From Candidatus Magasanikiibacteriota bacterium (GTDB lineage: Bacteria > Patescibacteriota > Patescibacteriia > Magasanikbacterales > UBA922): a stretch of DNA of 64,000 nt. Below, piece by piece: positions 6,381 through 59,716 of the stretch. The notes under the pieces are model-generated. The model was not told the origin of the DNA and ran no database searches. It was given only the letters and a program-made list of their open reading frames with translations. Position numbers and translations under genes: made by a program. How positions within the stretch are numbered: the stretch's first letter is position 1; each line of letters starts with the position of its first letter. The stretch lies in assembly GCA_018651085.1 (NCBI GenBank), contig JABIEQ010000011.1, positions 3,563-67,562 on the forward strand. Direction: 5' to 3'.

Positions 6381-6680
6381 TCACTTATTGATTGTCGGAT
6401 TTCTCATGACCGTCGCCTTCGGCCTTTCACTGAACCCTCCATCTCCGCCCTCAGAACGCTCCATGAGCGCCTGAAGGTGCTCGACTTGACCACTGAGATC
6501 TTCCGGGACCTCAGGCTCGAGAGGATTGTCGTCCTGACGTTCTCCCTCTTCAAGATCTTGTGGTCTAACCCCAGCAGAGAACGCAGCTCCTTCCCACGGA
6601 GCCATCCTCCTTGTGACCTCAGTTGCAGGTCCTTCAAGCTCTTTCTCTCGAGATTTCGTTTCGAAACCAACAGTGCTCAT
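6381..6680 (-). CDS. Hypothetical acidic protein (99 aa) in GC-rich cassette 1.
   Basis: GGGAGG SD 5 nt upstream of the ATG. G/C-ending codons. Lies in a GC-rich block of about 530 bp within the AT-rich host. Low-complexity, acidic sequence. It could instead be a chance ORF in GC-rich non-coding DNA. Confidence 0.35.
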   Translation of the reverse strand: MSTVGFETKSREKELEGPATEVTRRMAPWEGAAFSAGVRPQDLEEGERQDDNPLEPEVPEDLSGQVEHLQALMERSEGGDGGFSERPKATVMRNPTINK

Positions 6681-10563: not shown

Positions 10564-10641
10564 GTGGACGCCTTGAGGAAGCGTCCCCACCCAATAAACT
10601 ACATACACCGCCAGAGAGGCGGTGTATTTTTTATTTCTTGT

Positions 10642-13440
10642 TTAAGTATTCAATATATTTAAATTAGGGTATTTCTTTTGCAAGGATATTTTCTCTTCAT
10701 GAGGTAGACTACGAAGGTCAAGATTCTGACCAACATCTCCAAAGGTTACGCCTTCCAGGCTCGTTATACTACGAAGGTTAAGACTTCCACCAACATCTGA
10801 CAAGGTTACACCTTCCAGACTGGTTATACTACGAAGGTCAAGATTTCCACCAACATCTGGCAAGGTTACACCTTCTAGACTGGTTATACTGCCAAGGTAA
10901 AGATTTCCATCAACATCTGGCAAGGTTACACCTTCCAGGCTTGTTATGCTGTTAAGGTAAAGATCCCTACCAACATCTCCAAAAGTCACACCTTCCAGGC
11001 TCGTTATGCTGTTAAGGTAAAGACTTCCACCAACATCTGGCAAGGTTACACCTTCCAGACTGGTTATACTGTCAAGGTAAAGACTTCCACCAACACCTGG
11101 TAAGGTTACACCTTCGAGGCTTGTTATGCTGTTAAGGTAAAGATCCCTACCAACATTTCCAAAAGTCACACCTTCCAGACTGGTTATACTACGAAGGTTA
11201 AGATCCCTACCAACATCTGGCAAGGTTACGCCTTCCAGGCTCGTTATACTGCGAAGGTCAAGACTCCCACCAACATCTCCAAAGGTTACACCTTCCAGGC
11301 TCGTTATGCTGTTAAGGTAAAAATTTCCACCAACATCTGGCAAGGTTACACCTTCTAGGCTGGTTATACTACGAAGGTCAAGATTTCCACCAACATCTGG
11401 TAAGGTTACACCTTCCAGGCTTGTTATGCTGTTAAGGCTAAGATCCCCACCAACATTTCCAAAAGTCACACCTTCCAGACTGGTTATACTACGAAGGTTA
11501 AGATCCCTACCAACATCTGGCAAGGTTACGCCTTCCAGGCTGGTTATACTGCCAAGGTAAAGATTTCCACCAATATCTGGCAAGATTACACCTTCCAGGC
11601 TGGTTATACTGTTAAGGTAAAGATCCCCACCAACATCTGACAAGGTTACACCTTCTAGGCTGGTTATACTACGAAGGTCAAGATTTCCACCAACATCTGG
11701 CAAGGTTACACCTTCTAGACTGGTTATACTGCGAAGGTCAAGATTCCCATCAACATCTGGCAAGGTTACACCTTCTAGACTGGTTATACTGCGAAGGTCA
11801 AGATTCCCATAGTGAAATAATGTATCTCCATTAAGTGCTTCGTTGTGGGTCGTAGATATTTTATCTTTTGTCATTTCGGGATACTTGGTTTGCAAGGCAA
11901 AGGCTAAATCTTCTTTTATATCAATTCCTCTATCTCGTCTGTTATCAATTATTTCTTGGACACGTGAATCTCTTCCATAACCAAACCCTTGTACTTTTTC
12001 ATTAATCTCATAAAGAAAAGTAAGATCTTGTGGAGAAAGTGGCTCGGTTGCTTGATGTCGTTTATATATATCGGTCAATTGCTTCATATCAGCATCTTTC
12101 TTTTGATACACATCTCCATCTGGAAATTCAGTAAGTTTGTTTCCTAAAATAGCAGTCTTTGCCATGTACGAATCAATATTTTGCTTTACTGCGCGACCAC
12201 GAACCTCTGCAATATTATTACCTTTCATACGTATCGCTAAACGTGGAATAGTTGCTTCATTATTTTCGTCTTCAGAATAATATACATGAAAGTCACCTGC
12301 AGCAACTTGAGACGAAGCAAATCCTTCCCCAGCTGTACACCATCCAGTTCCTTTGCCTTGTAAAGAATCAACCAATTTCATATGATCAGATCCTTTGGGA
12401 TATGTTACCCAAGTACCTTTTGTAACTTGTAAAACAGACTCATCTATCTCAACTAATTGTTTAAAGGCTTCGTTATACAATGTACGAAAATCTGTATGAG
12501 AAAGGAGTTCCTCAATGTCTTCGAGAGGTTTGTCTATATCTTCATACCCAAGCATTTTCTTTTGCCTTTCTTCAAGTACCTCTAACTTTTGTGAAAATTT
12601 TTCTATTTCTTTATTACGATCACTTTCATCTTCTGGAAGACGTTCTAAAAGACGTCTGTCCTTACTAATACCTTTTTCTAGCGCTGCTTTTGTTTTGGTT
12701 TGTATCCCTTCTTTTTGTAGTAATCCTTCTTTTTTTGTAATACCACTGTTAATATTGTCATAGGAACGTAATCTATCTAATTGTCTTTTTACATCATTTT
12801 TCTCTTCAAGTAATGAAATATATTCTTTACTAAATTGTGATTGTAAAAGTTCCATAGCATAAACCAGAGCCTCTTGGTTTAACTCTGGATATGGAGCTAC
12901 AGTGTCTTTTGATCGAGGAATAAAAGTATCACTATTTTGTGCCTCAGGGTCTCCTGCATCAGGGTTTCGTCTTAATTTTTTCATCCCTTCAAAAGCCCAA
13001 TATTTGAGCCACACAGGGTACCCTTCTGCATCTGAAGAAGAAAAATAATTGATCCAATAATCTAAACTTGCACGCTGATCTCTTCCAATAACTTCTCCAG
13101 CTTGTGAACGCAATTCCGGAGTAATCTCTGGAATTTCTCTCCCCTCATTACGTGCTACTCGTTGTTGTTGAACAAAAAAACTATCAGGCACATCTTTTGC
13201 TTTCATAACATACAGCTCATGGGCTGCTTGTTTCATCCGTGTTACTACTTCTTGATCTGTTTTTGCATCTTCCAAAATATCTTGCCACATCTGTAACCAG
13301 CCCTCAATCTTTTTTCTTGGTTGTTCTTCCTTCTTTTCCTGTCGTTCTTCACGTTGCCATTGAAGATGTTCTATGATTGGCTCCTTATGAAGTGATGGAT
13401 CTTGCTGATGCAAAAAATGCTCTGGATTTCTTGGTCGCAT
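10642..13440 (-). CDS. Large putative surface protein (932 aa): N-terminal domain of unknown function plus about 18 tandem 20-aa leucine-rich repeats.
   Basis: The C-terminal half is made of near-identical NLDLRSITSLEGVTLPDVGG units, an LRR-like pattern LxxLxLxxIxxL. The N-terminal 550 aa has no recognisable motif. Confidence 0.7.
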   Translation of the reverse strand: MRPRNPEHFLHQQDPSLHKEPIIEHLQWQREERQEKKEEQPRKKIEGWLQMWQDILEDAKTDQEVVTRMKQAAHELYVMKAKDVPDSFFVQQQRVARNEGREIPEITPELRSQAGEVIGRDQRASLDYWINYFSSSDAEGYPVWLKYWAFEGMKKLRRNPDAGDPEAQNSDTFIPRSKDTVAPYPELNQEALVYAMELLQSQFSKEYISLLEEKNDVKRQLDRLRSYDNINSGITKKEGLLQKEGIQTKTKAALEKGISKDRRLLERLPEDESDRNKEIEKFSQKLEVLEERQKKMLGYEDIDKPLEDIEELLSHTDFRTLYNEAFKQLVEIDESVLQVTKGTWVTYPKGSDHMKLVDSLQGKGTGWCTAGEGFASSQVAAGDFHVYYSEDENNEATIPRLAIRMKGNNIAEVRGRAVKQNIDSYMAKTAILGNKLTEFPDGDVYQKKDADMKQLTDIYKRHQATEPLSPQDLTFLYEINEKVQGFGYGRDSRVQEIIDNRRDRGIDIKEDLAFALQTKYPEMTKDKISTTHNEALNGDTLFHYGNLDLRSITSLEGVTLPDVDGNLDLRSITSLEGVTLPDVGGNLDLRSITSLEGVTLSDVGGDLYLNSITSLEGVILPDIGGNLYLGSITSLEGVTLPDVGRDLNLRSITSLEGVTFGNVGGDLSLNSITSLEGVTLPDVGGNLDLRSITSLEGVTLPDVGGNFYLNSITSLEGVTFGDVGGSLDLRSITSLEGVTLPDVGRDLNLRSITSLEGVTFGNVGRDLYLNSITSLEGVTLPGVGGSLYLDSITSLEGVTLPDVGGSLYLNSITSLEGVTFGDVGRDLYLNSITSLEGVTLPDVDGNLYLGSITSLEGVTLPDVGGNLDLRSITSLEGVTLSDVGGSLNLRSITSLEGVTFGDVGQNLDLRSLPHEEKISLQKKYPNLNILNT
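10699..11808. repeat. About 18 tandem copies of a 60-bp coding repeat inside the LRR protein gene.
   Basis: The unit (plus strand, about 90% identical between copies) is ccaacatctggcaaggttacaccttccaggctggttatactacgaaggtcaagatttcca, seen directly in the sequence. Confidence 0.85.
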
Positions 13441-17460: not shown

Positions 17461-17913
17461 TCAGCGGTTGTCCCTACCGAAGACCTGAGACATCATGCTC
17501 TCGACAGTGACCGTTCCTCGTCCGGGGTAAAAGGATCCCCGTAGGGTACCCATCCGAACGCTTTTTTGGGTTATAGTTTGGATCAGCTTCCGCAGATCCC
17601 CGGCCATTTCCTCACCCAAGATCCCTGCTTGATCTCTGTTCACTCCCCCGAGAACGATACTGATGGCCTTCTTGTTGAACCAAGCAGCTCCACCTGTAGG
17701 AGGCATCTTTCTGACTAGTTCATGAAGAATCCTCGTTCTCTGATCACTCGTGAAAAGTCCTCTTCTTGAGGGTGTAACCCCCACAAAAAGAAGGAGGAAG
17801 GGAGTTTGAATCTCCCTAGAGACATGGATCATTGCTTCAAGAGCTCGCAGGAACTGCTCTCGTGAGACAAACTCTGACCCAAACTGTAGACGCACTGATA
17901 TCTCCTTTTTCAT
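17461..17913 (-). CDS. Hypothetical protein (150 aa) in GC-enriched cassette 8.
   Basis: GGAGG SD then ATG. G/C-ending codons (CTG, GAG, CGC). The block 17420-17990 stands out as GC-enriched against AT-rich flanks. Confidence 0.45.
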   Translation of the reverse strand: MKKEISVRLQFGSEFVSREQFLRALEAMIHVSREIQTPFLLLFVGVTPSRRGLFTSDQRTRILHELVRKMPPTGGAAWFNKKAISIVLGGVNRDQAGILGEEMAGDLRKLIQTITQKSVRMGTLRGSFYPGRGTVTVESMMSQVFGRDNR

Positions 17914-25881: not shown

Positions 25882-26769
25882 TCAGCCCTCGGCGAGGAGC
25901 AGACACATCATGGCGCAGATGACGTGTTGGCCGAGAAGGCTTTCTTTGGCGAGCCACAGGATGTCGGCGCGGGTGCACCACCGGTCCCCTTCGATGAGCT
26001 CCATGTCCTCTCGTCGTCCCGGGATCATGAAGCAGTCATCTTGCTTCCCGAGAAAGCGAGCTCCATCCTGTTGAACCGAAAGAGGGTCGGTGACGCTCTT
26101 CTGGTTGAACAACTCCGAGTAGGGCGGCTTGTTGCCACCATGGAGCTGGATAAAATTCGCCAACGAAGCATGGAGAGGACTCGTGACCACAACGTGACCA
26201 TCAAGGTTGCTGTTCCCAGGTTCGACTTTGGTTCGAAGGAGAATCAAGTCCTCCTCTTCGTCACGGATGATGACGATAGCGCCAGGGTGATTCCCGACCC
26301 TACGCACCATGGGCTGAACCCAGTCATGGACCTCTCGCCCCGCTGCGTGAACACCAACTCCCACGACTTCGAAGAAGCTGAGGCTGCTCTGGCCCTCTTG
26401 AGGAGGCCTCTGAGCCATGACCATGGTGTCTGCAGCCAAGAAGACGAGTCGCTCTTTCCCGGTCTTGACGTCTTGCCCGGTACTGAAGCTCTTGAAACCC
26501 GTGAAGGGCACGACTTCACTCGGAGTGCTCTCGAAACCTTCGAGGGCCGATTCTGGCCGACTGAAGTTCCAAGGCCCCTCGAAGGTCACCCGCATGAGGC
26601 TCTGACCAATTACCCAGCCAGAGAGTTTTCCTCGTCTATCACTGGGCTTGTTTGCCCACTCGAAGATCTCGGACCACCCCAAAAGGAGTTCTCCGAAACC
26701 GACCGCATTTGCGGCCATCTTAGACCGCTCCTGGGCCGCCTTGACCCAGTCTTGGACACTTTCGTCCAT
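25882..26769 (-). CDS. Hypothetical protein (295 aa) in GC-rich cassette 2.
   Basis: AGGAGGG SD 4 nt before the ATG. G/C-ending codons. A fully overlapping antisense ORF also exists. The minus strand is preferred because of the SD and the tandem downstream hairpins. Confidence 0.45.
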   Translation of the reverse strand: MDESVQDWVKAAQERSKMAANAVGFGELLLGWSEIFEWANKPSDRRGKLSGWVIGQSLMRVTFEGPWNFSRPESALEGFESTPSEVVPFTGFKSFSTGQDVKTGKERLVFLAADTMVMAQRPPQEGQSSLSFFEVVGVGVHAAGREVHDWVQPMVRRVGNHPGAIVIIRDEEEDLILLRTKVEPGNSNLDGHVVVTSPLHASLANFIQLHGGNKPPYSELFNQKSVTDPLSVQQDGARFLGKQDDCFMIPGRREDMELIEGDRWCTRADILWLAKESLLGQHVICAMMCLLLAEG

Positions 26770-35222: not shown

Positions 35223-37430
35223 TTGTGCTATGTAGAGCTTTATTTTCTATTTATGCTCCAGCTCAAATATATCACACTCCCCCTTGTCTGCCTAGCCATG
35301 ATTGCTATTGGTTTATTTAGCCAAGATCACCTATTTACGAACACCCTAGGAACCCTAGGGCTTATTGGATTTATAGGAAGTTGTGGTGTGGTTATTGCTT
35401 CCACAAAAATGTTCTTTTCTTTCCCATTACGATACGTATGGTCAGTGTTAAGTGCCACCCTATTTACGATTATAACTCACGCTGTCTTATACTTCTTTTT
35501 TGTGAGTACCCCCCTTACGATTTTTCTTACCTTTATCTTTACTGGTATTGTCTCCCTTTGCTTTTTCTTCTTTTCTTCTCATGAAGTTCCCCCTCGCTTT
35601 ACGGTACGTCGAATGTTTCGTCGTATGCTCCCGTACTTTGTTAAGCCTGCTGGCATCTCATTATCTTCTTCCCTTCTTCTTGGAACGATTATATTCTTTC
35701 AGGCGCTTCTTTTTATCCGTATTATTACAAGAGTCACAACTGGTGTCTTGCAATCCCCCTGGCTAATCTTTGGGCCAAAGTTTTTTATTCTCTTTGCTAT
35801 TACCACTGCCTTATTATTGTTTTATCACCTTAGCGTAAAGCGAACGAAAGTTGGGTTTATTTCTCTTATCTTTCATTTCTTTTTAACGTTTAGTTTAGCC
35901 GCTATTATTTATAAGCTTGGGTATGGGTATGACCCCTTCCTTCATAGAGCGACTGAATCCTATATTTTTCAATTTGGGTTTGCTGAACCAAAGACACCTT
36001 TTTATATTGGGCAATTTGTAAGTGTAAACATATTAGCGCACATCACAGGTCTTTCAGTAAAGCTTATTGATATCTGGTTGGTACCAGTACTTGCAAGTAC
36101 TCTTCTTCCTTTATGTACCTATACAACCCTACGCTATGGGTTTCGTACCTATGAGAGATACGCTAGGGCAGGAACACTATTACTCCTCCTATACCCCTTA
36201 CAAACCATGATCGCAACGACTCCACATAACCTGGCGAACTTTTTCACCCTTTCTACGATTCTTATAAGTCCGCTTGTTTTTAAGCGAACACATTTCTTAT
36301 TCATAGTAGGTTTGGTCGCATCAGCTGCGGTTGTTACCCATCCACTTACAGGAATCTTTGCATTCTGGTTTTTCTTGGGTCTTTGCCTTTTACTGTTTTT
36401 TAGAAAACACTCTTTTTCTCGAAGTATTCGTTACGCTAGTTACGCTGTTTATAGTTTCATTGGAGCAATATTAACACCTCTTCTTTTAGGGTCTTTTCTT
36501 TTAAAGCAAGGAGTGGGACTTCAACCCCTTTCTTACATTCGAGATCATCTTTCAAACTTCACTGGACTCTTTACGGCACCGTACTATTTTTTTGATACAC
36601 CCGTACCATTTTTATATGACCTCATCTACACATACAGATGGGCAGTGATTTTACTTCTTATTGGTTTTGCTATTTATGGATACTTTAATATAAAAAAGAA
36701 AACACCGTACACGATCTTTATTGCCTTTCCACTCATCATTGTTCTCAATGCTTTTTTTGCAAGCACGTGGATCACGGTCCCGAACTTACAAGTGTATGAG
36801 CAACTTCAATATGCTGAACGCTTGATGCATGTCAGTATGTTTTTCATCATACCTTTAAGTCTCTTTGGGATGGTTACCCTTATCCGTTTTATTAGACGAC
36901 AGCAAAATATCCTTATCATCAGCACCTGCCTTATAACAGCCATCTTCCTTTCGACCTCATTCTATCTTACCTACCCACAAAAAAATCCCAAGGTAAATTA
37001 CAAGGGATTTAACGTCACAAAAGCGGACAGTTTGGGTGCACAGTATATTCATAAAAAGGCTCAAGATAAGCCTTATATTGTACTTAGTAACATTATGGGA
37101 GCCGCTGCAGCCATTGATCTGTATGGGTTCTTACATTACTACGATGTAAACGGTGATCCACTCTATTATTATAGTATTCCAACTGGTGGAGAACTCTATG
37201 ATGAGTACCTTCACATGTTGTATGAAGGACAAAAGCGTGAGTACATGTATGCGGCAATGGATGTTGCCGGTGTTGATACTGCGTACTTTGTCCTCAATAA
37301 ATATTGGATTGATTTCCCTACTATTTTAGAAGGGGCAATACATTCTTCTGACGAAGCGTTTGCAACAGAAAATGGAAACGTGTGGGTGTTTAGATATTCT
37401 CGGACACCTTCCCAACTTGATACAAATTAA
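35223..37430 (+). CDS. Large polytopic membrane protein (735 aa), possibly a polysaccharide polymerase or glycosyltransferase.
   Basis: More than 14 predicted TM helices. No soluble catalytic motif recognised. Neighbours are glycosyltransferases. Confidence 0.45.
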   Translation: MCYVELYFLFMLQLKYITLPLVCLAMIAIGLFSQDHLFTNTLGTLGLIGFIGSCGVVIASTKMFFSFPLRYVWSVLSATLFTIITHAVLYFFFVSTPLTIFLTFIFTGIVSLCFFFFSSHEVPPRFTVRRMFRRMLPYFVKPAGISLSSSLLLGTIIFFQALLFIRIITRVTTGVLQSPWLIFGPKFFILFAITTALLLFYHLSVKRTKVGFISLIFHFFLTFSLAAIIYKLGYGYDPFLHRATESYIFQFGFAEPKTPFYIGQFVSVNILAHITGLSVKLIDIWLVPVLASTLLPLCTYTTLRYGFRTYERYARAGTLLLLLYPLQTMIATTPHNLANFFTLSTILISPLVFKRTHFLFIVGLVASAAVVTHPLTGIFAFWFFLGLCLLLFFRKHSFSRSIRYASYAVYSFIGAILTPLLLGSFLLKQGVGLQPLSYIRDHLSNFTGLFTAPYYFFDTPVPFLYDLIYTYRWAVILLLIGFAIYGYFNIKKKTPYTIFIAFPLIIVLNAFFASTWITVPNLQVYEQLQYAERLMHVSMFFIIPLSLFGMVTLIRFIRRQQNILIISTCLITAIFLSTSFYLTYPQKNPKVNYKGFNVTKADSLGAQYIHKKAQDKPYIVLSNIMGAAAAIDLYGFLHYYDVNGDPLYYYSIPTGGELYDEYLHMLYEGQKREYMYAAMDVAGVDTAYFVLNKYWIDFPTILEGAIHSSDEAFATENGNVWVFRYSRTPSQLDTN

Positions 37431-38604
37431 TCATGTCATTAATATATTCTTTTTGATTTAAACGTAAGAGTGATACTCTTGTTTCTTTTGCCATCTCTTT
37501 TATTTCATTCTGATGTTCTACACACCACAATATTTTTTCTTTTAATGAATCAGAGTCTCCTGCATTAAAGGTAATACCATTCACTCCTTCTTCTACAAGC
37601 TCAGCAATTCCTTCGATGTCACTTGCTAGTACCGGGGTACTAAATGCAAGGCTTTCAAAAAAGACTGTCGGTGAATTTTCATAACAAAGAGACGGGATAA
37701 TGGTGACGTCGGTTTGCTTTAAAAGATCTGGAATATTTGCTCGATCAACTTTCCCAGAAAAGACGATTTTATCTTTATTTTTTACTGAACTTTTAATGTG
37801 TTCAAGAAGTGACCCACCGCCAACAACCTGCAATTTCAATTGAACACTGTTTGTATCCAATAGTTCATCGACTGCATGCACAAGAAAATCCACTCCTTTA
37901 TGTTGTTCAATTTGACCAAGATAGAGAAATTGGAAGACTCCACTTCCCTCCCCTTTTTCCACTTCTGCTTCCACTTCAAAAGTAATAGGATTTCTCACCA
38001 TCACTCTTTTTGACTTTGGAAAGAATCCACGTGATTCATAGAAGTTTAGTAAAAATTGAGATGGAGACACAACTACATCTGGTGAACCCATAAGGCGCTT
38101 CATAAGTGCGGTGTAGAGTGCGACATGTGGACCATGATATCTAAGGTTCTTTTCTTTTTGTTTTAAAATAATGCCACTTGGCTCAACTAGCTGTACATCG
38201 TGAACCGTATGAATATGTGGAAGTTTTAACGATCTAATGACTCGTGGTATTACAAATCCCACACCCATAAGATTATGGGTGTGCACGACATCTGGCTTTT
38301 CCTTTTCTAAAATTTCTTTTACGTATTCCCCTGCTCCAGTGTGGGCAATGTCTTGCATATGCCAAAGTAGTCGAGAAAAGATATTGTGCTTATGGGCTTC
38401 CGTATAAAAAAATAGGTTTCGTGGTTGAAACCGATAAATAGTGAGTTTTCCTTCCTTTATACACTCTTTGCCTTTCGGTGAGGTCGTTATAAGGACAACG
38501 TCATGTCCCTTTTCTATGAGCCCTTCTATGGTCTTTTTTACGACCTGCTCAGCTCCTCCCCTGGCATAGGGTGGATAAAGGTTATTGATAAGACAAATTT
38601 TCAT
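37390..38604 (-). CDS. Glycosyltransferase family 4 (GT-B fold).
   Basis: MKICLINNLYPPYARGGAEQVV N-terminus, and the C-terminal EGFGITVLEAMA-like region (FSTPVLASDIEGIAELVEEG). Confidence 0.7.
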   Translation of the reverse strand: MKICLINNLYPPYARGGAEQVVKKTIEGLIEKGHDVVLITTSPKGKECIKEGKLTIYRFQPRNLFFYTEAHKHNIFSRLLWHMQDIAHTGAGEYVKEILEKEKPDVVHTHNLMGVGFVIPRVIRSLKLPHIHTVHDVQLVEPSGIILKQKEKNLRYHGPHVALYTALMKRLMGSPDVVVSPSQFLLNFYESRGFFPKSKRVMVRNPITFEVEAEVEKGEGSGVFQFLYLGQIEQHKGVDFLVHAVDELLDTNSVQLKLQVVGGGSLLEHIKSSVKNKDKIVFSGKVDRANIPDLLKQTDVTIIPSLCYENSPTVFFESLAFSTPVLASDIEGIAELVEEGVNGITFNAGDSDSLKEKILWCVEHQNEIKEMAKETRVSLLRLNQKEYINDMINLYQVGKVSENI

Positions 38605-38633
38605 ATAGATACTATCACCATACACTAATTTAG

Positions 38634-38648
38634 AGGGTTAAATCAAAT
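38634..38648. repeat. 15-nt direct repeat AGGGTTAAATCAAAT, left copy flanking cassette 3.
   Basis: Identical 15-mer at 39593-39607. The two copies bracket the GC-rich cassette. Confidence 0.6.
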
Positions 38649-38659
38649 GCTCTACCCCA

Positions 38660-38688
38660 TTGACAAAACTCCCTCTTTTTACTATAGT
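38660..38688 (+). promoter_or_regulatory. Sigma70-like promoter for cassette 3 (TTGACA-N17-TATAGT).
   Basis: Consensus -35 with exact 17-nt spacing, about 115 nt upstream of the SD. Confidence 0.5.
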
Positions 38689-38805
38689 TTTTTATTGAAT
38701 GCGTTCTTTTATAAAGACCTTTTCCTTTTCTTGTTTCCTTACGTCTAGGTACTAGGAGAAGGAGAAGGTCGTTTTGACCTGAACTGAGGCTTCGCAATCA
38801 CCACA

Positions 38806-39357
38806 ATGAATCGCAACCGAGAGGACGTTATGAACGCTTCCATCGTACTGATCTTGAAGTTCTGGGAAAGCCTGGGCAACGCCATCGACGGAGACGAACT
38901 CTATCCTCATCTTTTCCTAGGTGACTCCCACACCTACGTGTCCTCCCAGGGCAATATGTGGGGGCCGAGCGATGGCCGTCACTACGTCGACAAGCTGCTG
39001 TGGAACACGTTGGGGAAACAGCAGCTTCCAGCCCCGACCTTACCCGGTCGTGCTTTCAGCGTCGTGACGTGGGCCGACCGCCCGGTGGAAGGACTCGATG
39101 AGATCTTCGGCCCAGCAGTTGATAACCCCGAGGCCCTTGATGAGATGCTCAAGAAGGGCTGCGGTGGTTGGTTTGAGTTCTCGGAGACCTCGAACAACTG
39201 GGATGTCCGCCATTACGGCTCTGTCTTCCTGCTTCCCACGGGAGCAAAGATCCTCGTCACCATCTGCTACGATCGCAACCAGTCTGCCACCGCTGAGGTG
39301 CTCGAGGCGGAACGCACGGCCCGGCGTGATAAAGCCCTCATCGGGCACTGGATGTGA
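38806..39357 (+). CDS. Hypothetical protein (183 aa) in GC-rich cassette 3.
   Basis: AGGAGAAGGAGAAGG SD region. G/C-ending codon usage. Downstream GC hairpin GCACGAACAACGTTCGTGC. No recognisable motif. Confidence 0.5.
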   Translation: MNRNREDVMNASIVLILKFWESLGNAIDGDELYPHLFLGDSHTYVSSQGNMWGPSDGRHYVDKLLWNTLGKQQLPAPTLPGRAFSVVTWADRPVEGLDEIFGPAVDNPEALDEMLKKGCGGWFEFSETSNNWDVRHYGSVFLLPTGAKILVTICYDRNQSATAEVLEAERTARRDKALIGHWM

Positions 39358-39592
39358 TCAGGTCAGAATACCCATGAAAGCCGCGGAATCGGCGTCGAGT
39401 TATTATGACGACTAGCACGAACAACGTTCGTGCCAAGAAGCTCATGTGACTCGGCGCCCCGCGGCTACCGACTATCTTTTTTACTTTATAGAAAGGATTG
39501 AGGAATAAAAAACACCTATATATAGGTGTTTTTTTGTTTCTTGATTTTATATACACATGTTCTACACACTCTATCACCAGAGCCCCATTTGA

Positions 39593-39607
39593 AGGGTTAA
39601 ATCAAAT
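39593..39607. repeat. 15-nt direct repeat AGGGTTAAATCAAAT, right copy, 20 nt upstream of the dnaB start.
   Basis: Identical to 38634-38648. Confidence 0.6.
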
Positions 39608-39626
39608 AGTATATGATGGGAATACT

Positions 39627-41030
39627 ATGAGTAAAAGTATCATTGATCTAGAAAAGATCCCCCCTCAGAACATTGAGGCTGAACAATCCCTTCTTGGGGC
39701 TGTTTTGCTTGATAAAGAAGCGATGCTTAAGATTGTTGACATTGTTGAACCTGGTGACTTTTATAAAAATACCCATAAATCTATCTTTGAGGTTATTCTT
39801 GAGCTTTATGGTAAGAATGAACCTATTGATGTTTTAACCCTTGGAAATAGATTAGAAGAAATTGAAAAGCTTAAAGGCATCGGTGGGCGAACCTATCTTA
39901 TTGCATTATCTAATGCTGTTCCGACCTCTGCGCATATTGTGCAGTATGCTGAGATTATCAAAAAGAAGTCTCTTCACAGAAAGCTCTTGATCGCAGCTGG
40001 GGAGATTACCAAGCTTGGGTATAGAGAACAAGAAGGAGATGTAAATAAAGTTCTTGATGAAGCACAACAGCTATTGTTTAGTGTGACACAAAAGCACATG
40101 AGACAAAACTTTGTACCGATTAGATCTGTGCTTGATAATGCCTTTGAAAGAATTGATAAGCTCCATCGTGAAAAAGGAAAGCTTCGAGGAATTCCTACTG
40201 GATTTCCTAAACTTGATAATCTGCTCGCTGGATTCCAGAAATCTGATCTTGTTATCTTAGCTGCTAGACCTGCCGTTGGAAAGACCTCTCTTGCTCTTGA
40301 TATTGCGCGTCACGCGGCTATCCGTGGACATGCGTCTGTGGGTCTCTTTTCTCTTGAGATGAGTAAAGAACAATTGGTTGATAGAATGCTTTGTGCTGAA
40401 GCTGGAGTTGATTTGTGGAAGCTTCGAACTGGTAACTTATCTGACAAACCGGATAGTGATGATTTTCCTCGTATTGGGCACGCTATGGGAAAGCTTTCTG
40501 AAGCTAAGATTTTTATTGATGACACGGCTGGAGCGAATGTCTTACAAATTAGAACCAAAGCAAGGCGTCTACAGGCTGAACACGGCCTTGATATGATTGT
40601 GATCGATTACTTGCAACTTATGAACCCTACGAGCTCTAAAGCAAACCAGGGACGGGTACAGGAAGTGGCTGAGATGAGTCGAGGGTTAAAGCTCCTTGCT
40701 CGTGAATTAGATATCCCTGTGCTTACCCTTTCACAGCTTTCTCGTGCAGTAGAGCAGACAAAACCAGCCATCCCTAAATTGTCACATCTCCGAGATTCTG
40801 GTAGTATTGAGCAAGACGCTGACATTGTGTTATTTATCTATAGAAAGGCTGCTGACGGAAACTACCGGTTAGAGGACATTCCACCTGATGAACGCCATAT
40901 TGGAGAAGTCCATATAGCAAAACATCGTAATGGACCTACTGGTGTCGTCAAAATCTTTTTTGATGAAACACGTGCAAGTTACCGTAGCCTTGATATGCAT
41001 CATGGTGAAAGTGCTCCAGCGGTACATTAA
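39627..41030 (+). CDS. dnaB: Replicative DNA helicase DnaB.
   Basis: N-terminal PPQNIEAEQSLLGAVLLD. Walker A ARPAVGKTS. Walker B MIVIDYLQLM. The H4 motif LSQLSR. Start set at MSKSIIDL. Confidence 0.9.
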   Translation: MSKSIIDLEKIPPQNIEAEQSLLGAVLLDKEAMLKIVDIVEPGDFYKNTHKSIFEVILELYGKNEPIDVLTLGNRLEEIEKLKGIGGRTYLIALSNAVPTSAHIVQYAEIIKKKSLHRKLLIAAGEITKLGYREQEGDVNKVLDEAQQLLFSVTQKHMRQNFVPIRSVLDNAFERIDKLHREKGKLRGIPTGFPKLDNLLAGFQKSDLVILAARPAVGKTSLALDIARHAAIRGHASVGLFSLEMSKEQLVDRMLCAEAGVDLWKLRTGNLSDKPDSDDFPRIGHAMGKLSEAKIFIDDTAGANVLQIRTKARRLQAEHGLDMIVIDYLQLMNPTSSKANQGRVQEVAEMSRGLKLLARELDIPVLTLSQLSRAVEQTKPAIPKLSHLRDSGSIEQDADIVLFIYRKAADGNYRLEDIPPDERHIGEVHIAKHRNGPTGVVKIFFDETRASYRSLDMHHGESAPAVH

Positions 41031-42032: not shown

Positions 42033-43004
42033 TTATTTTTTACCATACATCAGATACCATTCCTTTGCATTTTCTAAATATTTATTATACGAATAATTTT
42101 CTATTAGAATTTTCTCTATTGTAGAAAACCATTTTTTACGAAAAACCACTTCGGGGCTTCCTGATCTCCACTTCTTTATTTCTGAGATAAATTTTATTTC
42201 ATAAGTATATGTAGTAAAATTTTGATGATCTGATGTTGGTATACCTAACATACTACCTATCTCGCCAGCTGACCTACTACCTTGTAATGACCTTACCCGT
42301 ATTTGAAACTTTCCTATTTTGTCTTCCATTGTAAGTGTGAATCTTCTTGGTTTAGAGGAAATTTTTAATTTTGAATTTTTAGGTATTTTCATATTTCCTC
42401 CTGGTGGAAAAATCAAATCGTTAGGTTTAAATTTCTCAAAGATTCTATAATCTGTTTGTTTGATAATATCATCCCAAGTAATCACATTATACGCCTTTTC
42501 TTCTCCATGATTTCCTCTTATTAAAGAACCTGTAGGAAGATCTATATATTCAACGTTAGATGTCCACGCATTTGAAAACTGGTTGAACATGTCAGTTAGT
42601 ATAGAGTAAGTTAATATATCTAAATATAATTGCAGATCTAATTTTTCCTTCTTTACATCAAACTCTTCTGGAAATTTTTGAAAATAAAACTGCTTTACTC
42701 GTAAATATTTATTACTGTATGGAATTGAGGGGAAATTCCTACCGTCTTTCAATGAATCATAGTAATCTATCTCTTGCAAATTTATATCATGCCTGTCATG
42801 TTGTACTGTAACTGAGGAAATAAAGCTCTTTTCATAGTATTGAGGCTTCAATATAAATGTCATCGAAAATAAAGCCGTACCTATACCTAAAACTATAGAA
42901 GTAGCAAATATTTCTACAATTTTTTCATGTCCTCTATTTAAAAAAGAAATATAAGAAACAAAACCAAAAAGGATTATTGCTATGATAAATAAGAGTGCTT
43001 TCAT
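42033..43004 (-). CDS. Hypothetical membrane-anchored protein (323 aa).
   Basis: Two N-terminal TM helices and an AT-rich host-like ORF. No recognisable motif. Confidence 0.45.
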   Translation of the reverse strand: MKALLFIIAIILFGFVSYISFLNRGHEKIVEIFATSIVLGIGTALFSMTFILKPQYYEKSFISSVTVQHDRHDINLQEIDYYDSLKDGRNFPSIPYSNKYLRVKQFYFQKFPEEFDVKKEKLDLQLYLDILTYSILTDMFNQFSNAWTSNVEYIDLPTGSLIRGNHGEEKAYNVITWDDIIKQTDYRIFEKFKPNDLIFPPGGNMKIPKNSKLKISSKPRRFTLTMEDKIGKFQIRVRSLQGSRSAGEIGSMLGIPTSDHQNFTTYTYEIKFISEIKKWRSGSPEVVFRKKWFSTIEKILIENYSYNKYLENAKEWYLMYGKK

Positions 43005-43013
43005 AATACTATT

Positions 43014-43796
43014 TTACTTCTTAAAGAATCTATTTATTTCATCTAATGAGAAAGCATATCCTATTCCTACGTTTGCAGATCTTTTTATTTCTTTTGAAAT
43101 AACCTGCATCTGCGCCTGCGTTGTCTTCATCGCCTGAAAATGATCGACTCCTCCCATACGTATGCTCCCTTTAAAACGAGAAAGGTGTCTAATATTTTGG
43201 TCAAAACTTTCTATTAATTCGTCAAAAAATTCACTAAGCCCTTTTGCGGCTCTTGTAACTATACCAATTACTTTACCAGTAGAGACATCCAACAAAGGCC
43301 CTCCCGAATTCCCTTGATTTACACTTGCATCAATCTGTATATATCTAACACTATTTTTAGAATAATGTGATGAAACCATGCCTGCATGCATTGATAAATT
43401 ACCTTGGCTAAATGCATAACCTAGCATTCCTACCTGCATCCCAATAGGAAAATCAACATTGTTGATTTGTAGTTCTAATGATGGAAAATCTTTCAAATCT
43501 TCTATTTCAATAATCGCGAAATCCCAATTACTCTCTGGTGATCCATCCTTTAGGGCGCTTACAAATTCATCTTTGGTAAATTCCTTTCTAAACCTTGATG
43601 TTGAACCATCTATTTCAACAAACTCAACTATCACGGTATCTGAGGGTGGACAAAAATATACATGATTATTTGTTACTAAATACCCATCAACGATGAAACC
43701 CGTCCCAGATGCTATTTTTTCTCCATCTTTCCAATGCCCTATCGAACATACAGACTGACAAGTTTTAGCCCACAATCCCGCGTACATGTTATACAT
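43014..43796 (-). CDS. Trypsin-like serine protease (S1 family).
   Basis: His motif VTNNHV, Asp DFAIIEI, and Ser GNSGGPLLD. Confidence 0.65.
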   Translation of the reverse strand: MYNMYAGLWAKTCQSVCSIGHWKDGEKIASGTGFIVDGYLVTNNHVYFCPPSDTVIVEFVEIDGSTSRFRKEFTKDEFVSALKDGSPESNWDFAIIEIEDLKDFPSLELQINNVDFPIGMQVGMLGYAFSQGNLSMHAGMVSSHYSKNSVRYIQIDASVNQGNSGGPLLDVSTGKVIGIVTRAAKGLSEFFDELIESFDQNIRHLSRFKGSIRMGGVDHFQAMKTTQAQMQVISKEIKRSANVGIGYAFSLDEINRFFKK

Positions 43797-50972: not shown

Positions 50973-51014
50973 AAAGCCGCTTGTGGCTAAATACTCACAC
51001 CAAGGAGGGACGAG

Positions 51015-51371
51015 ATGAAGATCCGGCTGAAGATCAATCGGGAAGAGATTGTACCCAAAGAGAAAGGGATCCTGACGGGTCTTCTCGAGTACTTTGGGAA
51101 AGGACTTGAAGTTGCCAATAGCCAGATGGTGCTGACCTTTGAGGTCACATGCCATCTCACCGGACCTCAAGGCCCGGAAGACATTATGACCATCTGGATG
51201 AACAAAGAAGAAGCCCAAGAGCTCTCTGACGCAGGGGTCCCCCTTCTCACCGTGATGGCGCCTCGGTCAATGCTTCAAAACCGCAGAGGGCTCACCTACG
51301 ACGCCCCATGGCAAGACATCGAGGTCCTCGAAGAGGACCAGCCACCACCCCCGCCGCTCTCGGCAGCCTGA
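51015..51371 (+). CDS. Hypothetical protein (118 aa) in GC-rich cassette 4; ends ...EEDQPPPPPLSAA.
   Basis: AAGGAGGG SD 6 nt before the ATG. G/C-ending codons. Followed by a GC hairpin and then the AT-rich terminator at 51476-51504. Confidence 0.5.
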   Translation: MKIRLKINREEIVPKEKGILTGLLEYFGKGLEVANSQMVLTFEVTCHLTGPQGPEDIMTIWMNKEEAQELSDAGVPLLTVMAPRSMLQNRRGLTYDAPWQDIEVLEEDQPPPPPLSAA

Positions 51372-51475
51372 CAACCAACAAGGAGAAGAAATGGCACGCG
51401 CACCACCCTAAAAAAAGGGATGAGCACCGTGCCATCCCGACCTATGTGTTTGATATCTCAAATCTATAGGTTTAT

Positions 51476-51504
51476 AAAAAACTGCTACATATAGCAGTTT
51501 TTTG
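51476..51504 (+). terminator. Rho-independent terminator between cassettes 4 and 5.
   Basis: AAAAACTGCTACATATAGCAGTTTTTT. Confidence 0.6.
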
Positions 51505-51525
51505 TTTTCACTTTTCACTCTACCC

Positions 51526-51554
51526 TTGACATCTCCTAGTTATTATGGTTAGAT
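51526..51554 (+). promoter_or_regulatory. Sigma70-like promoter for cassette 5 (TTGACA-N17-TTAGAT).
   Basis: Read from the sequence, about 50 nt upstream of the AGGGAGG SD. Confidence 0.4.
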
Positions 51555-51604
51555 TGTCTGTTTTGGGTACAGATAGATAACGAAACCTTAGACAAGGGAG
51601 GACA

Positions 51605-51859
51605 ATGGTCACTATTCGAAACCTCCTAGAGGTTTACCACGAAGAACGGCTCCTGTGGGATTTACTTGGAGTCACTCCAAAACGCCAGAACGGTTTCTAT
51701 GAAATCGCCTGGTCTATTACGGTGGCACTGAGCTGGGAATACTCAATCCCAACATGGCAAGTCTCGAGACTTCCACAGGAGTACCTTCTTGGGTCAGAGT
51801 CCACCCGTTACTACTACAGGCTGTGTCTGTTTGTAGAAAACGGGAAGGCTCAACCCTGA
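51605..51859 (+). CDS. Hypothetical protein (84 aa) in GC-rich cassette 5.
   Basis: AGGGAGG SD. G/C-ending codons. Followed by a perfect 13-bp hairpin terminator. Confidence 0.5.
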   Translation: MVTIRNLLEVYHEERLLWDLLGVTPKRQNGFYEIAWSITVALSWEYSIPTWQVSRLPQEYLLGSESTRYYYRLCLFVENGKAQP

Positions 51860-51873
51860 AGAGAGACCACAAA

Positions 51874-51915
51874 GACCCGCCAAGCAGTTGCTTGGCGGGT
51901 CTTCACATTTATATT
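51874..51915 (+). terminator. Rho-independent terminator of cassette 5.
   Basis: GACCCGCCAAGCA-GT-TGCTTGGCGGGTC followed by a T-rich tract. Confidence 0.65.
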
Positions 51916-52100
51916 ACTAACTAAAGCGATATACTTAACAAAATATGATATATTTGTCAATATGCACCATCGTCCTTATCACACTATGGGGAACAAGAAT
52001 ATGACACTTCGTATGTTTGCTCCCCTAAATACCTGTTCAGTTTGGTGCTCGTGGGGAGGCACAACACAAACTGAATTCAATAGTGTGGAGGAAACGAACG

Positions 52101-52622
52101 ATGAGCACTGGCAACAAGGGTGGCGAGCTGCTGCCGCGCCTCAAGTACGAGTGGATCCCGGACCAAGGGGCCTTCCGGGTGACCCAGGAGGTCAGGCACT
52201 CCTCGAAGGAGTCGGCGATGCGTGCCCTGTGGGGTGTGTTTCGCGAAGGCTGGATCACGCGGGACAACTTCCTGACGATGCGCAGCCGCCTGATGGAGTC
52301 GAGACTGCCCGAAGGACAGATCGACCCGATCGTCAAGCGCTGCGAAACTGGGAAGGGGATCCGGCTCATGACCTACGCTGGTCCCTGGACCCAGTTCATC
52401 TACTCCCAGGCGGCACTCCGTCAGATCATGGAAAACTGCGTCGGACAGCTTCTGCTGACCCAGTACCAGTCTGAGGAACTCCTGAAGGAAGCCCTCGAAG
52501 AGTTCGAGGATCTTCCTGAAGAGCGCCAGCCGCTTGATGACATCCCGACCTCTGGTCTCCTCGAGATCCACATCATCGTGGGCGCCGGCCGGAAAGCCTC
52601 TCCGTCGCCAGACACTCATTAG
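52101..52622 (+). CDS. Hypothetical protein (173 aa) in GC-rich cassette 6.
   Basis: GGAGGAAACGAACG-ATG start. Strongly G/C-ending codons (CTG, GAG, CGC, GAC). Downstream GC hairpin GCCCACACCTTCGGCGTGGGC. Confidence 0.5.
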   Translation: MSTGNKGGELLPRLKYEWIPDQGAFRVTQEVRHSSKESAMRALWGVFREGWITRDNFLTMRSRLMESRLPEGQIDPIVKRCETGKGIRLMTYAGPWTQFIYSQAALRQIMENCVGQLLLTQYQSEELLKEALEEFEDLPEERQPLDDIPTSGLLEIHIIVGAGRKASPSPDTH

Positions 52623-52758
52623 CCCACACCTTCGGCGTGGGCACAGGCTCACGTCTGGAGGGACGTGATGAAGGTGGGACGGCGTTTCGCTCACGCGATA
52701 CGCCGACCCTGCAGTGCACTTTATGTATATAAAGTTCAGTGCAGGAAAAAATGTACAT

Positions 52759-58128: not shown

Positions 58129-59649
58129 TCAGTATGCTCGATTCAGTTGTGCTACGTGTTCCCTCATGACCTGGATGAGGTCATATGGGCCGACAGGTCT
58201 CCCGAGGACATCCTCAACGAGTTGGAACCCTGTACTGACACCTCCCTTGCAGAAGATGTTCGTCTGCAACCATCGGTTGAGCCCCTCAAAGTTTCCCTTT
58301 CGGATCTCCACCTCGATGTTGGGGTGCACTCCTTCGATCTCTCGCCAGAACATGGCTGCAACCATGTTGCCGATGCCGTAGGTGCCGTAGTACCCGATCC
58401 CCATGAAGGGATGGGGGTCTCTCAGACACCCCAAGGCGTCACTCTCGGGCTCTACCCCGAGATAGTGCAGTGAGAGCTCGTTCCACCTGGCGGAGAAATC
58501 TTCCACCTCAAGGCGCCCCTCGATGAGCTCCTGGTAGATTCTCACTCGCAGGAGGATGTGTGAGTTGTAGGTCAGCTCGTCGGCTTGCACCCGCACCGTT
58601 TGACGGGTGCATCTGTTGAGTGCTGAGTAGAGCTTCTCTGGACTCCACTCCTTGAGTTCAGGGAACATGTCTCCCATCATATCGAGCATCAGCTCGAGGA
58701 AAGGTAGGCTTCTTCCCACCCGACACTCGTAGAACCGCGCGATACTCTCGTGAAGACCTGTCGACGCCGGTCTTGCACCAGGGGTGTACTTCCACTCAGG
58801 AAGAAACCCTTGCTCGTAGCGAGCGTGCGCGGCCTCGTGCAGTCCAGGAAGGAGCAGCCGCCACCACTTCTCGTACTCAAGTGGAATACTGATCCGAACG
58901 TCATCTGGCGCCGCAATGGGTGCACAGAAGGGATGACTGCTTTGAGCAATCTCGAGCTTGTCGACCTCCAATCCCATCCGGTTTAAGCACCCCATGGTGA
59001 AAAGCCTGAATGCATTGGCCTCATGGGGCTTGTTGAGTGCCGGAATCTCACCCAAATCAGGAAAGGCCACGGCTTCCTCCACGAGTGGTTGAAGATCTCT
59101 ATGGAGATCTTCGAGAATATCAAGGAGCCACTTCGTTGAGGGAAGTCCCGGCTCCTGCGTACGCGCAAGACCCGCGTAAGGATCATCTGGATCCGCGGCG
59201 AGCCCCTTCATACGCTGGAGCTCGACGATTTTCTTCAAATGCCCTCCAAGGTGCTCCATGGTTCGCCGACCGTCTTTTCCGGCTTCTTCCCAGGCACTCT
59301 GTCCCACCATGCCGGCGTGAACAGTCTGCCTCACCAATTTCATTGGCAAGGTTCTTGGCAGCTGGCTTTCTCTGAGTGTTGCCCTTATGATCCCCATTTG
59401 CATCTCGGAGAGATCCCCCGGATTGGCCAACAGCCTGAGGGCGTCCGCGCGAAATTCCTCAGAACGCCAGAGTACTTGCTGCCGTCCGGAAATTTCAGCC
59501 GTTTTGCTTGCGAAGTATTCACCAGGATGCTGGTGATCGGTCGTCGCCATCTGCCATTCGAGCTCCCCCTTGAGCCCCTCAAGACACCAGATCTGCTTGA
59601 CCGTTGCGAGCCACGCCACAAACGCTTGCTGCTGCTTACTCATCGTCAT
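58129..59649 (-). CDS. M32-family metallo-carboxypeptidase (carboxypeptidase Taq-like) in GC-rich cassette 7.
   Basis: HEXXH region LHEAAHARYEQG. RVQADELTYNSHILLR. YLGVEPESDALGCLRDPHPFMGIGYYGTYGIGNMVAAMF; all match the Taq carboxypeptidase signature blocks. G/C-ending codons. Start set at MTMSKQQQ. Confidence 0.7.
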   Translation of the reverse strand: MTMSKQQQAFVAWLATVKQIWCLEGLKGELEWQMATTDHQHPGEYFASKTAEISGRQQVLWRSEEFRADALRLLANPGDLSEMQMGIIRATLRESQLPRTLPMKLVRQTVHAGMVGQSAWEEAGKDGRRTMEHLGGHLKKIVELQRMKGLAADPDDPYAGLARTQEPGLPSTKWLLDILEDLHRDLQPLVEEAVAFPDLGEIPALNKPHEANAFRLFTMGCLNRMGLEVDKLEIAQSSHPFCAPIAAPDDVRISIPLEYEKWWRLLLPGLHEAAHARYEQGFLPEWKYTPGARPASTGLHESIARFYECRVGRSLPFLELMLDMMGDMFPELKEWSPEKLYSALNRCTRQTVRVQADELTYNSHILLRVRIYQELIEGRLEVEDFSARWNELSLHYLGVEPESDALGCLRDPHPFMGIGYYGTYGIGNMVAAMFWREIEGVHPNIEVEIRKGNFEGLNRWLQTNIFCKGGVSTGFQLVEDVLGRPVGPYDLIQVMREHVAQLNRAY

Positions 59650-59716
59650 TGCCCTGTCCTCTTGTCGCTGGTTTTTGCCACGTGTATACAGCATGTCTAC
59701 ACAACTTGCGTTCACT

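Follow-up and report, generated by a model that had tools for sequence, protein, structure and literature searches.

In a 64,000-nt stretch of the genome of a Candidatus Magasanikiibacteriota bacterium (contig JABIEQ010000011.1; hereafter the window), a foreign-looking single-gene cassette was located between the divergent core genes for a GT4 glycosyltransferase and the replicative helicase DnaB, and was bracketed by an imperfect direct repeat of 37 nt. The repeat was real, discrete and non-random, its copies lay in promoter-like DNA of the two core genes, and the cassette was an insertion relative to everything sampled. Rather than marking a new mobile element, the repeat was most likely the footprint of a one-off insertion. 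Genomes of the candidate phyla radiation (CPR, Patescibacteria) are tiny and gene-dense and yet acquire foreign genes, and the entry of single genes without mobility genes is poorly documented. The locus provided one concrete junction, at which a foreign gene sits inside the promoter region shared by two core genes, one of them encoding a replicative helicase.

The direct repeat and the cassette between its copies

A sequence-only reading of the window had noted identical 15-mers on both sides of the cassette. These 15-mers (AGGGTTAAATCAAAT) were confirmed at 38634-38648 and 39593-39607, and proved to form one end, free of mismatches, of a longer but imperfect direct repeat, CTATCACCA-N13-AGGGTTAAATCAAAT, in which 30 of 37 bases were identical and whose copies had a spacing of 959 (Table 1). 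Beyond the 37 nt no similarity between the two flanks remained, and a longer duplication, through the dnaB start or leftwards, was ruled out (p = 0.79 and 0.06). All 7 mismatches were placed in the central 13 nt, while the 24 flanking positions were perfect; under random placement such clustering has a probability of C(13,7)/C(37,7) = 1.7e-4. The copies lay about 90 and 100 nt outside the compositional edges of the foreign core of the cassette and were not flush with it.

The window contained no further match to AGGGTTAAATCAAAT with 2 or fewer mismatches, and its search at 3-4 mismatches gave just scattered chance matches, which were unrelated. No third copy of the repeat was found in the window and about 18 kb of adjoining genome (about 82 kb in total). 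The 37-mer was not palindromic, and its pattern had 0 matches in viral contigs. With no third copy in about 82 kb, a genome-wide motif, such as a common promoter or untranslated-region element, was not supported.

A bare 15-mer pair within 3 kb is not rare in 64 kb: about 0.5 exact pairs were expected by a rough estimate, and one other pair, the low-complexity D17, was present. Coincidence in AT-rich intergenic DNA could produce such a pair. However, the copies exactly bracket the cassette and carry the 9-mer CTATCACCA in register, and the repeat was therefore judged non-random. Local alignment of flank against flank gave scores of 39-40, which were reached by 0 of 2000 and 0 of 500 shuffles, and these tests effectively refuted chance, to which next to no weight is given.

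The contents that the sequence-only reading had listed between the repeats, a promoter, a GC-rich open reading frame (ORF), a hairpin and a terminator, were all recovered, and only the length of the ORF was revised: the mechanical call (38806-39357, 183 aa) used an alternative start, and the start in the databases is 38830 (175 aa). The core had a GC content of 56-60% against about 37% for the genome. The hairpin region formed a stable fold (whole 136-nt fold, -54 kcal/mol, z = -6.8). The terminator downstream could work both ways, since it consists of an A-run, a 12-bp stem and a T-run; terminator-like hairpins also bound the other cassettes of the window.

The 175-aa product was identical to hypothetical proteins of metagenome-assembled genomes of Candidatus Magasanikbacteria, and was found on at least 23 contigs of up to 863 kb. 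It had no match in Pfam, PHROG or PADLOC, and no homologue among 5.8 billion clustered proteins or 1.8 billion representatives except for a weak FG-GAP-like blade: residues of about 48-102 matched single FG-GAP/VCBS-type blades in an exhaustive HMMER search of the 1.8 billion representatives (E = 6e-5). By this likeness the ORF may be the remnant of a larger foreign repeat protein. A single-sequence AlphaFold model was unusable (pLDDT 40).

No sign of a mobility system was seen around the cassette. The gene table held no transposase, integrase or other recombinase gene within 10 kb on either side, in line with the sequence-only reading, which had noted neither a transposase nor an integrase nearby; the neighbours were core cellular genes (GT4, dnaB, ybaB, recR, L21 and clpB), and there were no PHROG matches. 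There was no second copy of the cassette in about 82 kb, and no Rfam family or tRNA in the window. Terminal inverted repeats were absent, the best inverted match of the flanks being the 10-mer GTTTTTTATT (p about 0.18).

Both copies of the repeat were placed in the putative promoter regions of the core genes. The right 15-mer consisted of the last two bases of the candidate dnaB -35 box and 13 bases of the promoter spacer, while the left copy, which abuts GT4, overlapped a candidate -10 box of that gene, which was read from the sequence and was not reported by the promoter scan. The two copies differed in placement, the left one being upstream of the cassette -35 box and the right one inside the dnaB spacer. 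The layout of the dnaB promoter was common to relatives, with CATTTGAAG-N17-TATGAT in the window, CATTTGAAG-N17-TACTAT in L088 and TTGAAG-N17-TAAGAT in L086 (L numbers denote related loci and contigs). Of 44 distinct relatives, 6 had the CATTTGA context of the -35 box in the region upstream of dnaB, where about 0.5 would be expected by our own estimate, and an AAATCA-type sequence recurred within the dnaB promoter spacer across relatives. Since the right copy lies in the candidate dnaB promoter and the left copy overlaps the candidate GT4 -10 box, both appear to be native divergent-promoter DNA and not the ends of an element.

Two further features of the native promoters were observed. At 38604-38620 and 39612-39629, the candidate -10 boxes of GT4 and dnaB are separated from the start codons by only 4 and 9 nt, and both genes lack a Shine-Dalgarno (SD) box, which suggests that the native mRNAs are leaderless or near-leaderless. 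Upstream of the dnaB promoter, TATACACATGTTCTACACAC (39545-39570) contains two ACACA-type boxes about one helical turn apart, and some of the boxes 5' of dnaB in relatives are near the DnaA-box consensus TTATCCACA; the ACACA-type boxes may mark dnaB regulation.

Table 1. Coordinates of the direct repeat, the cassette, the flanking genes and the GC-rich island genes of the window
Feature	Position	Strand	Remarks
Left 37-nt copy	38612-38648	.	CTATCACCA + TACACTAATTTAG + exact 15-mer (38634-38648)
Right 37-nt copy	39571-39607	.	CTATCACCA + GAGCCCCATTTGA + exact 15-mer (39593-39607); inside candidate dnaB promoter
Cassette promoter, TTGACA-17-TATAGT	38660-38688	+	Candidate from consensus scan; 11/12 consensus positions
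Compositionally foreign GC-rich core	38741-39470	+	5' leader with SD box, ORF, 3' hairpin
Orphan ORF, 175 aa	38830-39357	+	GC content at third codon positions (GC3) 0.73; GAGAGGA 4 nt 5' of ATG
Long GC-rich imperfect hairpin, 88 nt	39379-39466	+	3' of ORF; by folding
AT-rich host-style terminator hairpin	39507-39534	+	Consensus scan; A-run, 12-bp stem, T-run
GT4 glycosyltransferase, native	37390-38604	-	404 aa; ATG at 38604, stop codon 37390-37392
Candidate extended -10 box of GT4, TGATAGTAT on the minus strand	38609-38617	-	4 nt before ATG; overlaps left 9-mer
Candidate dnaB promoter, TTGAAG-17-TATGAT	39589-39617	+	Consensus scan; -10 box ends 9 nt before dnaB ATG
dnaB replicative helicase, native	39627-41030	+	
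Eight GC-rich island genes	6381-6680, 17461-17913, 25882-26769, 38830-39357, 51015-51371, 51605-51859, 52101-52622, 58129-59652		

The GT4-dnaB spacer in related genomes

A total of 53 related GT4-dnaB loci, drawn from L006-L010 and L086-L168, were obtained from genome and metagenome scans, and their spacers were measured uniformly by tblastn. GT4 and dnaB were divergent neighbours throughout the family. Comparison for an empty site showed a compact spacer of 92-350 bp at about 33 of the 53 loci, and an expanded spacer of 508-2246 bp with unrelated cargo at about 20. The nearest GT4 orthologues (59-61% identity) had spacers of 116-199 bp with no gene between; the spacers of L086, L087 and L088 were 199, 151 and 116 bp by tblastn, and 202, 154 and 122 bp by called gene coordinates. 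In the closest relatives that were sampled, the two genes stood back to back at distances of 116-260 bp, with no cassette. Because the relatives mostly have compact spacers, the cassette was an insertion relative to all loci sampled. It had been proposed that removal of one repeat copy and the insert would restore a compact spacer typical of the genome. The insertion itself was borne out, but removal of the 959 bp leaves 63 bp, which is shorter than the 92-350 bp of the relatives.

The cargo of the expanded spacers consisted of a methyltransferase of native GC content (in several lineages), membrane proteins, and GC-rich orphan ORFs led by an SD box. Such SD-led orphans were present at GT4-dnaB in at least four lineages (the window; L007/L103/L008; L010/L107/L110; L136), and none of the GC-rich spacer ORFs of the relatives matched the window ORF by tblastn (E <= 1e-8). 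Since some relatives have nothing in this interval and others have unrelated genes there, it was considered a recurrent insertion hotspot.

Within the species, five fetched copies of the locus (L001-L005) matched the window at 100% identity across as much as 20 kb and showed no variation at the locus; the population is strikingly clonal. Copies came from several ENA, NCBI and Logan assemblies (contigs L001-L005, L169 and L170), of which L001-L005 were compared. The empty sites come only from distant relatives, since the nearest GT4 orthologue is 61% identical.

Flank repeats were also scored in 16 other expanded GT4-dnaB spacers and were significant only in L103/L007. A second target-site duplication (TSD) in L007 was ruled out, as its motif GGCTATGAACTA, paired in tandem, is also present elsewhere between genes of L007, at several sites. 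This 14-nt motif (TAGTTCATAGCCA / GGCTATGAACTA) was seen at 5108-5135, 5871-5951, 8204-8231 and 10048-10075 of L007, all of them intergenic, both as tandem pairs and inverted, and it flanks the GC-rich insert of L007 itself, mimicking a TSD.

That a flanking repeat in L007 did prove to be a dispersed motif gives some substance to a functional explanation of the repeat in the window. The two copies might be a bipartite operator or promoter module for a regulator of GT4 or the cassette and of dnaB, kept by selection, or a tandem promoter duplication that predates the insertion. The two perfect blocks at fixed spacing around a free centre resemble a bipartite binding site or -35/-10 blocks, and the AAATCA-type sequence recurs in the dnaB promoter spacer of relatives. 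However, about 82 kb of genome held no third copy, the copies have different positions relative to their promoters, the sequence lacks a palindrome, and relatives with empty sites have no comparable internal repeat. This explanation was therefore considered unlikely.

A second kind of insertion, AT-rich, was seen near the locus at 42033-43796, where two genes lie between recR and L21: one of unknown function (323 aa, 29% GC) and one for a trypsin-like protein of 260 aa. In L086-L088, recR and L21 are adjacent.

Origin of the duplication

The explanation that we favour, tentatively and with somewhat less than even confidence, is a single 37-bp promoter duplication that was associated with the insertion, arose through repair-type integration and has persisted since a promoter half remains with each of the core genes. 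In one event, a foreign gene unit of about 0.9 kb would have entered the native, compact GT4/dnaB spacer with its back-to-back promoters; in this unit an SD-led orphan ORF of high GC content is preceded by a promoter and followed by a GC hairpin and a terminator rich in AT. DNA that had been taken up would have joined by illegitimate or repair-type integration at a staggered or resected break, and fill-in of the overhangs would have duplicated about 37 bp, with no dedicated transposase involved. The duplication would thus have been simultaneous with the insertion. The left copy would retain the candidate GT4 -10 region, and the right copy the dnaB -35 box and spacer, with the -10 box just downstream.

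An insertion into the overlapping divergent promoters of two core genes could be tolerated because each gene keeps a promoter-bearing copy, and the presence of a promoter stretch on both sides offers a plausible route to such tolerance. If only duplicating events survive at such a site, this would explain why a repeat is found at the GT4-dnaB cassette and at none of the others, and the lack of repeats at the others fits untargeted, mechanism-poor insertion. Horizontal gene transfer (HGT) of single genes in Patescibacteria, probably via competence-based DNA uptake, has been described (PMC12455944). A literature search for cassettes of this type found only such general work on HGT in Patescibacteria.

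Several observations weigh against the repair-type explanation. Mismatches in the centre only are not expected from a plain duplication that then decayed neutrally, and they call for selection or a composite origin. The reconstructed spacer of 63 bp is shorter than that of any relative (minimum 92). The roughly 35 nt directly left of the right copy (TATACACATGTTCTACACAC), and thus between the repeats, resemble the ACACA/CACATGTT boxes located 5' of the dnaB -35 box in L006, L007, L008 and L088, and by this likeness part of the insert may be native spacer DNA or that of a relative. Whole-spacer alignment of the AT-rich spacer parts of the window to relatives gave nothing significant, the spacers being too diverged, and the native origin of the repeat is therefore claimed at the level of motifs. 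With the copies of the species 100% identical and the nearest GT4 at 61%, there was no pre-insertion allele by which to order the events. The clustered mismatches, the distance of the copies from the core and the 63-bp excision product also argued against the simple TSD that the sequence-only reading had proposed.

Some of these difficulties are relieved by the main rival, a Campbell-type single crossover, in which circular incoming DNA carrying the cassette and a homeologous copy of the GT4/dnaB spacer would have recombined with the chromosomal spacer. The donor could have been another Magasanikbacteria lineage with an occupied hotspot, and the resulting hybrid copies would be identical at the exchange and different mid-way. 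Perfect arms of 9 and 15 nt around a divergent 13-nt centre are what two homeologous parental sites are expected to give, and the problem of the 63-bp spacer disappears. The AT-rich shell inside the repeats has motifs found upstream of dnaB, namely ACACATGTT/ACACAC boxes that precede the right copy and, ahead of the cassette -35 box, CTCTACCC, as in L161 and L101, and in at least four lineages the GT4-dnaB spacer hosts SD-led orphan genes of high GC content. However, no donor was found, with the weak FG-GAP-like blade as the only homologue of the ORF, and the 37-mer pattern was absent from viral contigs. The motif likenesses are weak, and the whole-spacer alignments were not significant. An interrupted homology of 37 bp is, moreover, near the lower length limit for RecA-type exchange. 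On balance, a crossover of this type was regarded as rather unlikely.

Comparison with known systems and the other GC-rich islands

The unit between the repeats was compared with known systems and failed the defining tests for insertion sequences (IS) and transposons, for integrase-driven elements and for integron cassettes. TSDs of IS elements and transposons measure 2-14 bp, those of casposons 14-15 bp and those of target-primed retroelements 7-20 bp. The unit resembles these elements in that its insert has target DNA repeated directly on either side, and the exact 15 bp are in the range of casposons and retroelements. In contrast, the unit has no transposase, Cas1 or reverse transcriptase gene, no terminal inverted repeats and no other copies, its repeat at full length covers 37 bp and diverges in the centre, and its sister cassettes are free of repeats.

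The attL/attR sites of prophages, integrative conjugative elements and integrative mobilisable elements are similar in that an identical short core flanks the insert with less similar sequence beside it. However, the unit lacks an integrase, does not sit at a tRNA gene or another classic att target, and is a single-gene element of less than 1 kb; identical blocks on the outside and a divergent block in the centre are the reverse of a tyrosine-recombinase core. The identical block here is 15 bp, and the empty sites of the relatives have the promoter layout in common with the window, but their divergence is too great for an attB to be recognised.

Integron cassettes also consist of a single ORF followed by a long imperfect hairpin, whereas the unit has its own promoter and there is no array, intI or attI. 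No GTTRRRY/RYYYAAC attC cores were seen in the cassette when checked by eye, and integron insertion makes no duplication.

In anatomy the unit is moron-like. Phage morons were reportedly described by Hendrix and colleagues as promoter-gene-terminator units of atypical composition between genes, and the unit shares with them its own sigma-70-type promoter, a single gene, its own terminator, a position between two conserved genes and a deviant composition, at 59% GC and a GC3 of 0.73 against about 37% GC for the genome and a GC3 of 0.21-0.36 in host genes. It differs in its location, a CPR chromosome in which nothing points to a prophage, and flanking repeats are no part of the definition of a moron. 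In location it belongs to a chromosomal HGT hotspot. Oliveira, Touchon and Rocha are said to have described in 2017 such hotspots or islets between conserved core genes, and the GT4-dnaB interval is like them in holding different accessory genes in each lineage with no mobility genes nearby. It is unlike them in being the spacer of divergent promoters, about 100-250 bp long, and in that one of its occupants has a footprint that duplicates promoter DNA.

The cassette was one of eight sharply bounded islands in the window, with 49-61% GC and one gene each. GC3 was 0.48-0.79 in the eight island genes and 0.21-0.36 in 22 native genes. By eye, a strong SD box (GGAGG/GAGG) was present 4-10 nt before the start in 8 of 8 island genes, and anything SD-like in at most 2 of the 22 native genes. 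The islands were therefore regarded as foreign, since their composition and translation signals differ from those of the host. More GC-rich islands were seen just outside the window. Pfam domains were found in two island genes (M32 carboxypeptidase and NDP-hexose dehydratase-like) and in none of the others, and no Pfam, PHROG or PADLOC match among the cassette proteins pointed to mobility. The best non-self homologues of the M32 gene were only 28-33% identical, and no donor could be named for the islands.

No direct repeat was significant at the flanks of the other seven cassettes, nor at those of the three tandem ones treated as one block. Their inverted matches were weak: the smallest nominal p was 0.04, obtained with the tandem trio, and did not hold after correction for 18 tests. 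This agreed with the sequence-only reading, which had found no equally clean repeats around them. Shared sequences among the cassettes were also sought and rejected: the promoters matched trivially at the -35 box only, the 3' hairpins were all different, and there were no common end sequences. The suggestion that the cassettes are mobile insertions that duplicate their target was thus upheld at GT4-dnaB for the insertion and for the duplicated native DNA, but not as a property of the class (0 of 7 others).

These results bear on the possibility that the unit is a non-autonomous element that depends on an enzyme acting in trans, an unseen transposase, integrase or reverse transcriptase with long staggered cuts, and that has the 15-mer or 37-mer as its TSD. 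A direct repeat of native DNA does bracket a complete promoter-gene-terminator unit, many such units exist (8 in 64 kb and more beyond the window), and TSDs of 14-20 bp are known for casposons and target-primed retroelements. Against this stand the seven repeat-free cassettes, the lack of terminal inverted repeats and of a second copy, ends and promoters that share no significant sequence, a gene table free of recombinases for 10 kb on either side, and cassette proteins without mobility-type matches. The non-random mismatches and the 63-bp reconstructed spacer further oppose a clean TSD, and mobilisation in trans was judged improbable.

A broader proposal is that the GC-rich SD-led orphans form a pool of promoter-gene-terminator units that circulates in Magasanikbacteria and relatives and integrates into promoter-rich spacers with target duplications of 15-37 bp. 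The units would possibly travel from hotspot to hotspot with a shell of spacer DNA, by an unknown trans-acting enzyme, or as reverse-transcribed foreign transcripts. If this were true, a junction of such a system would, with the repeat, be visible for the first time in a CPR bacterium; the proposal is a long shot.

On its own, the repeat is one footprint of ordinary appearance, and a new mobile element cannot be established from it. The wider pattern, at least eight foreign-looking SD-bearing genes in 64 kb of an SD-poor CPR genome together with the family-wide GT4-dnaB hotspot, is more notable than the repeat.

Two further arrangements were observed in the window. At 50990-52720, three GC-rich single-gene units (118, 84 and 173 aa) lie head to tail in one intergenic interval, each with its own TTGACA-type promoter and hairpins. 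At 10585-11904, inside a 932-aa ORF (10642-13440), there are about 22 tandem units of 60 nt (a period of 20 aa), a count inferred from 18 overlapping 300-nt copies that are spaced 60 nt apart and are 61-89% identical to the reference copy.

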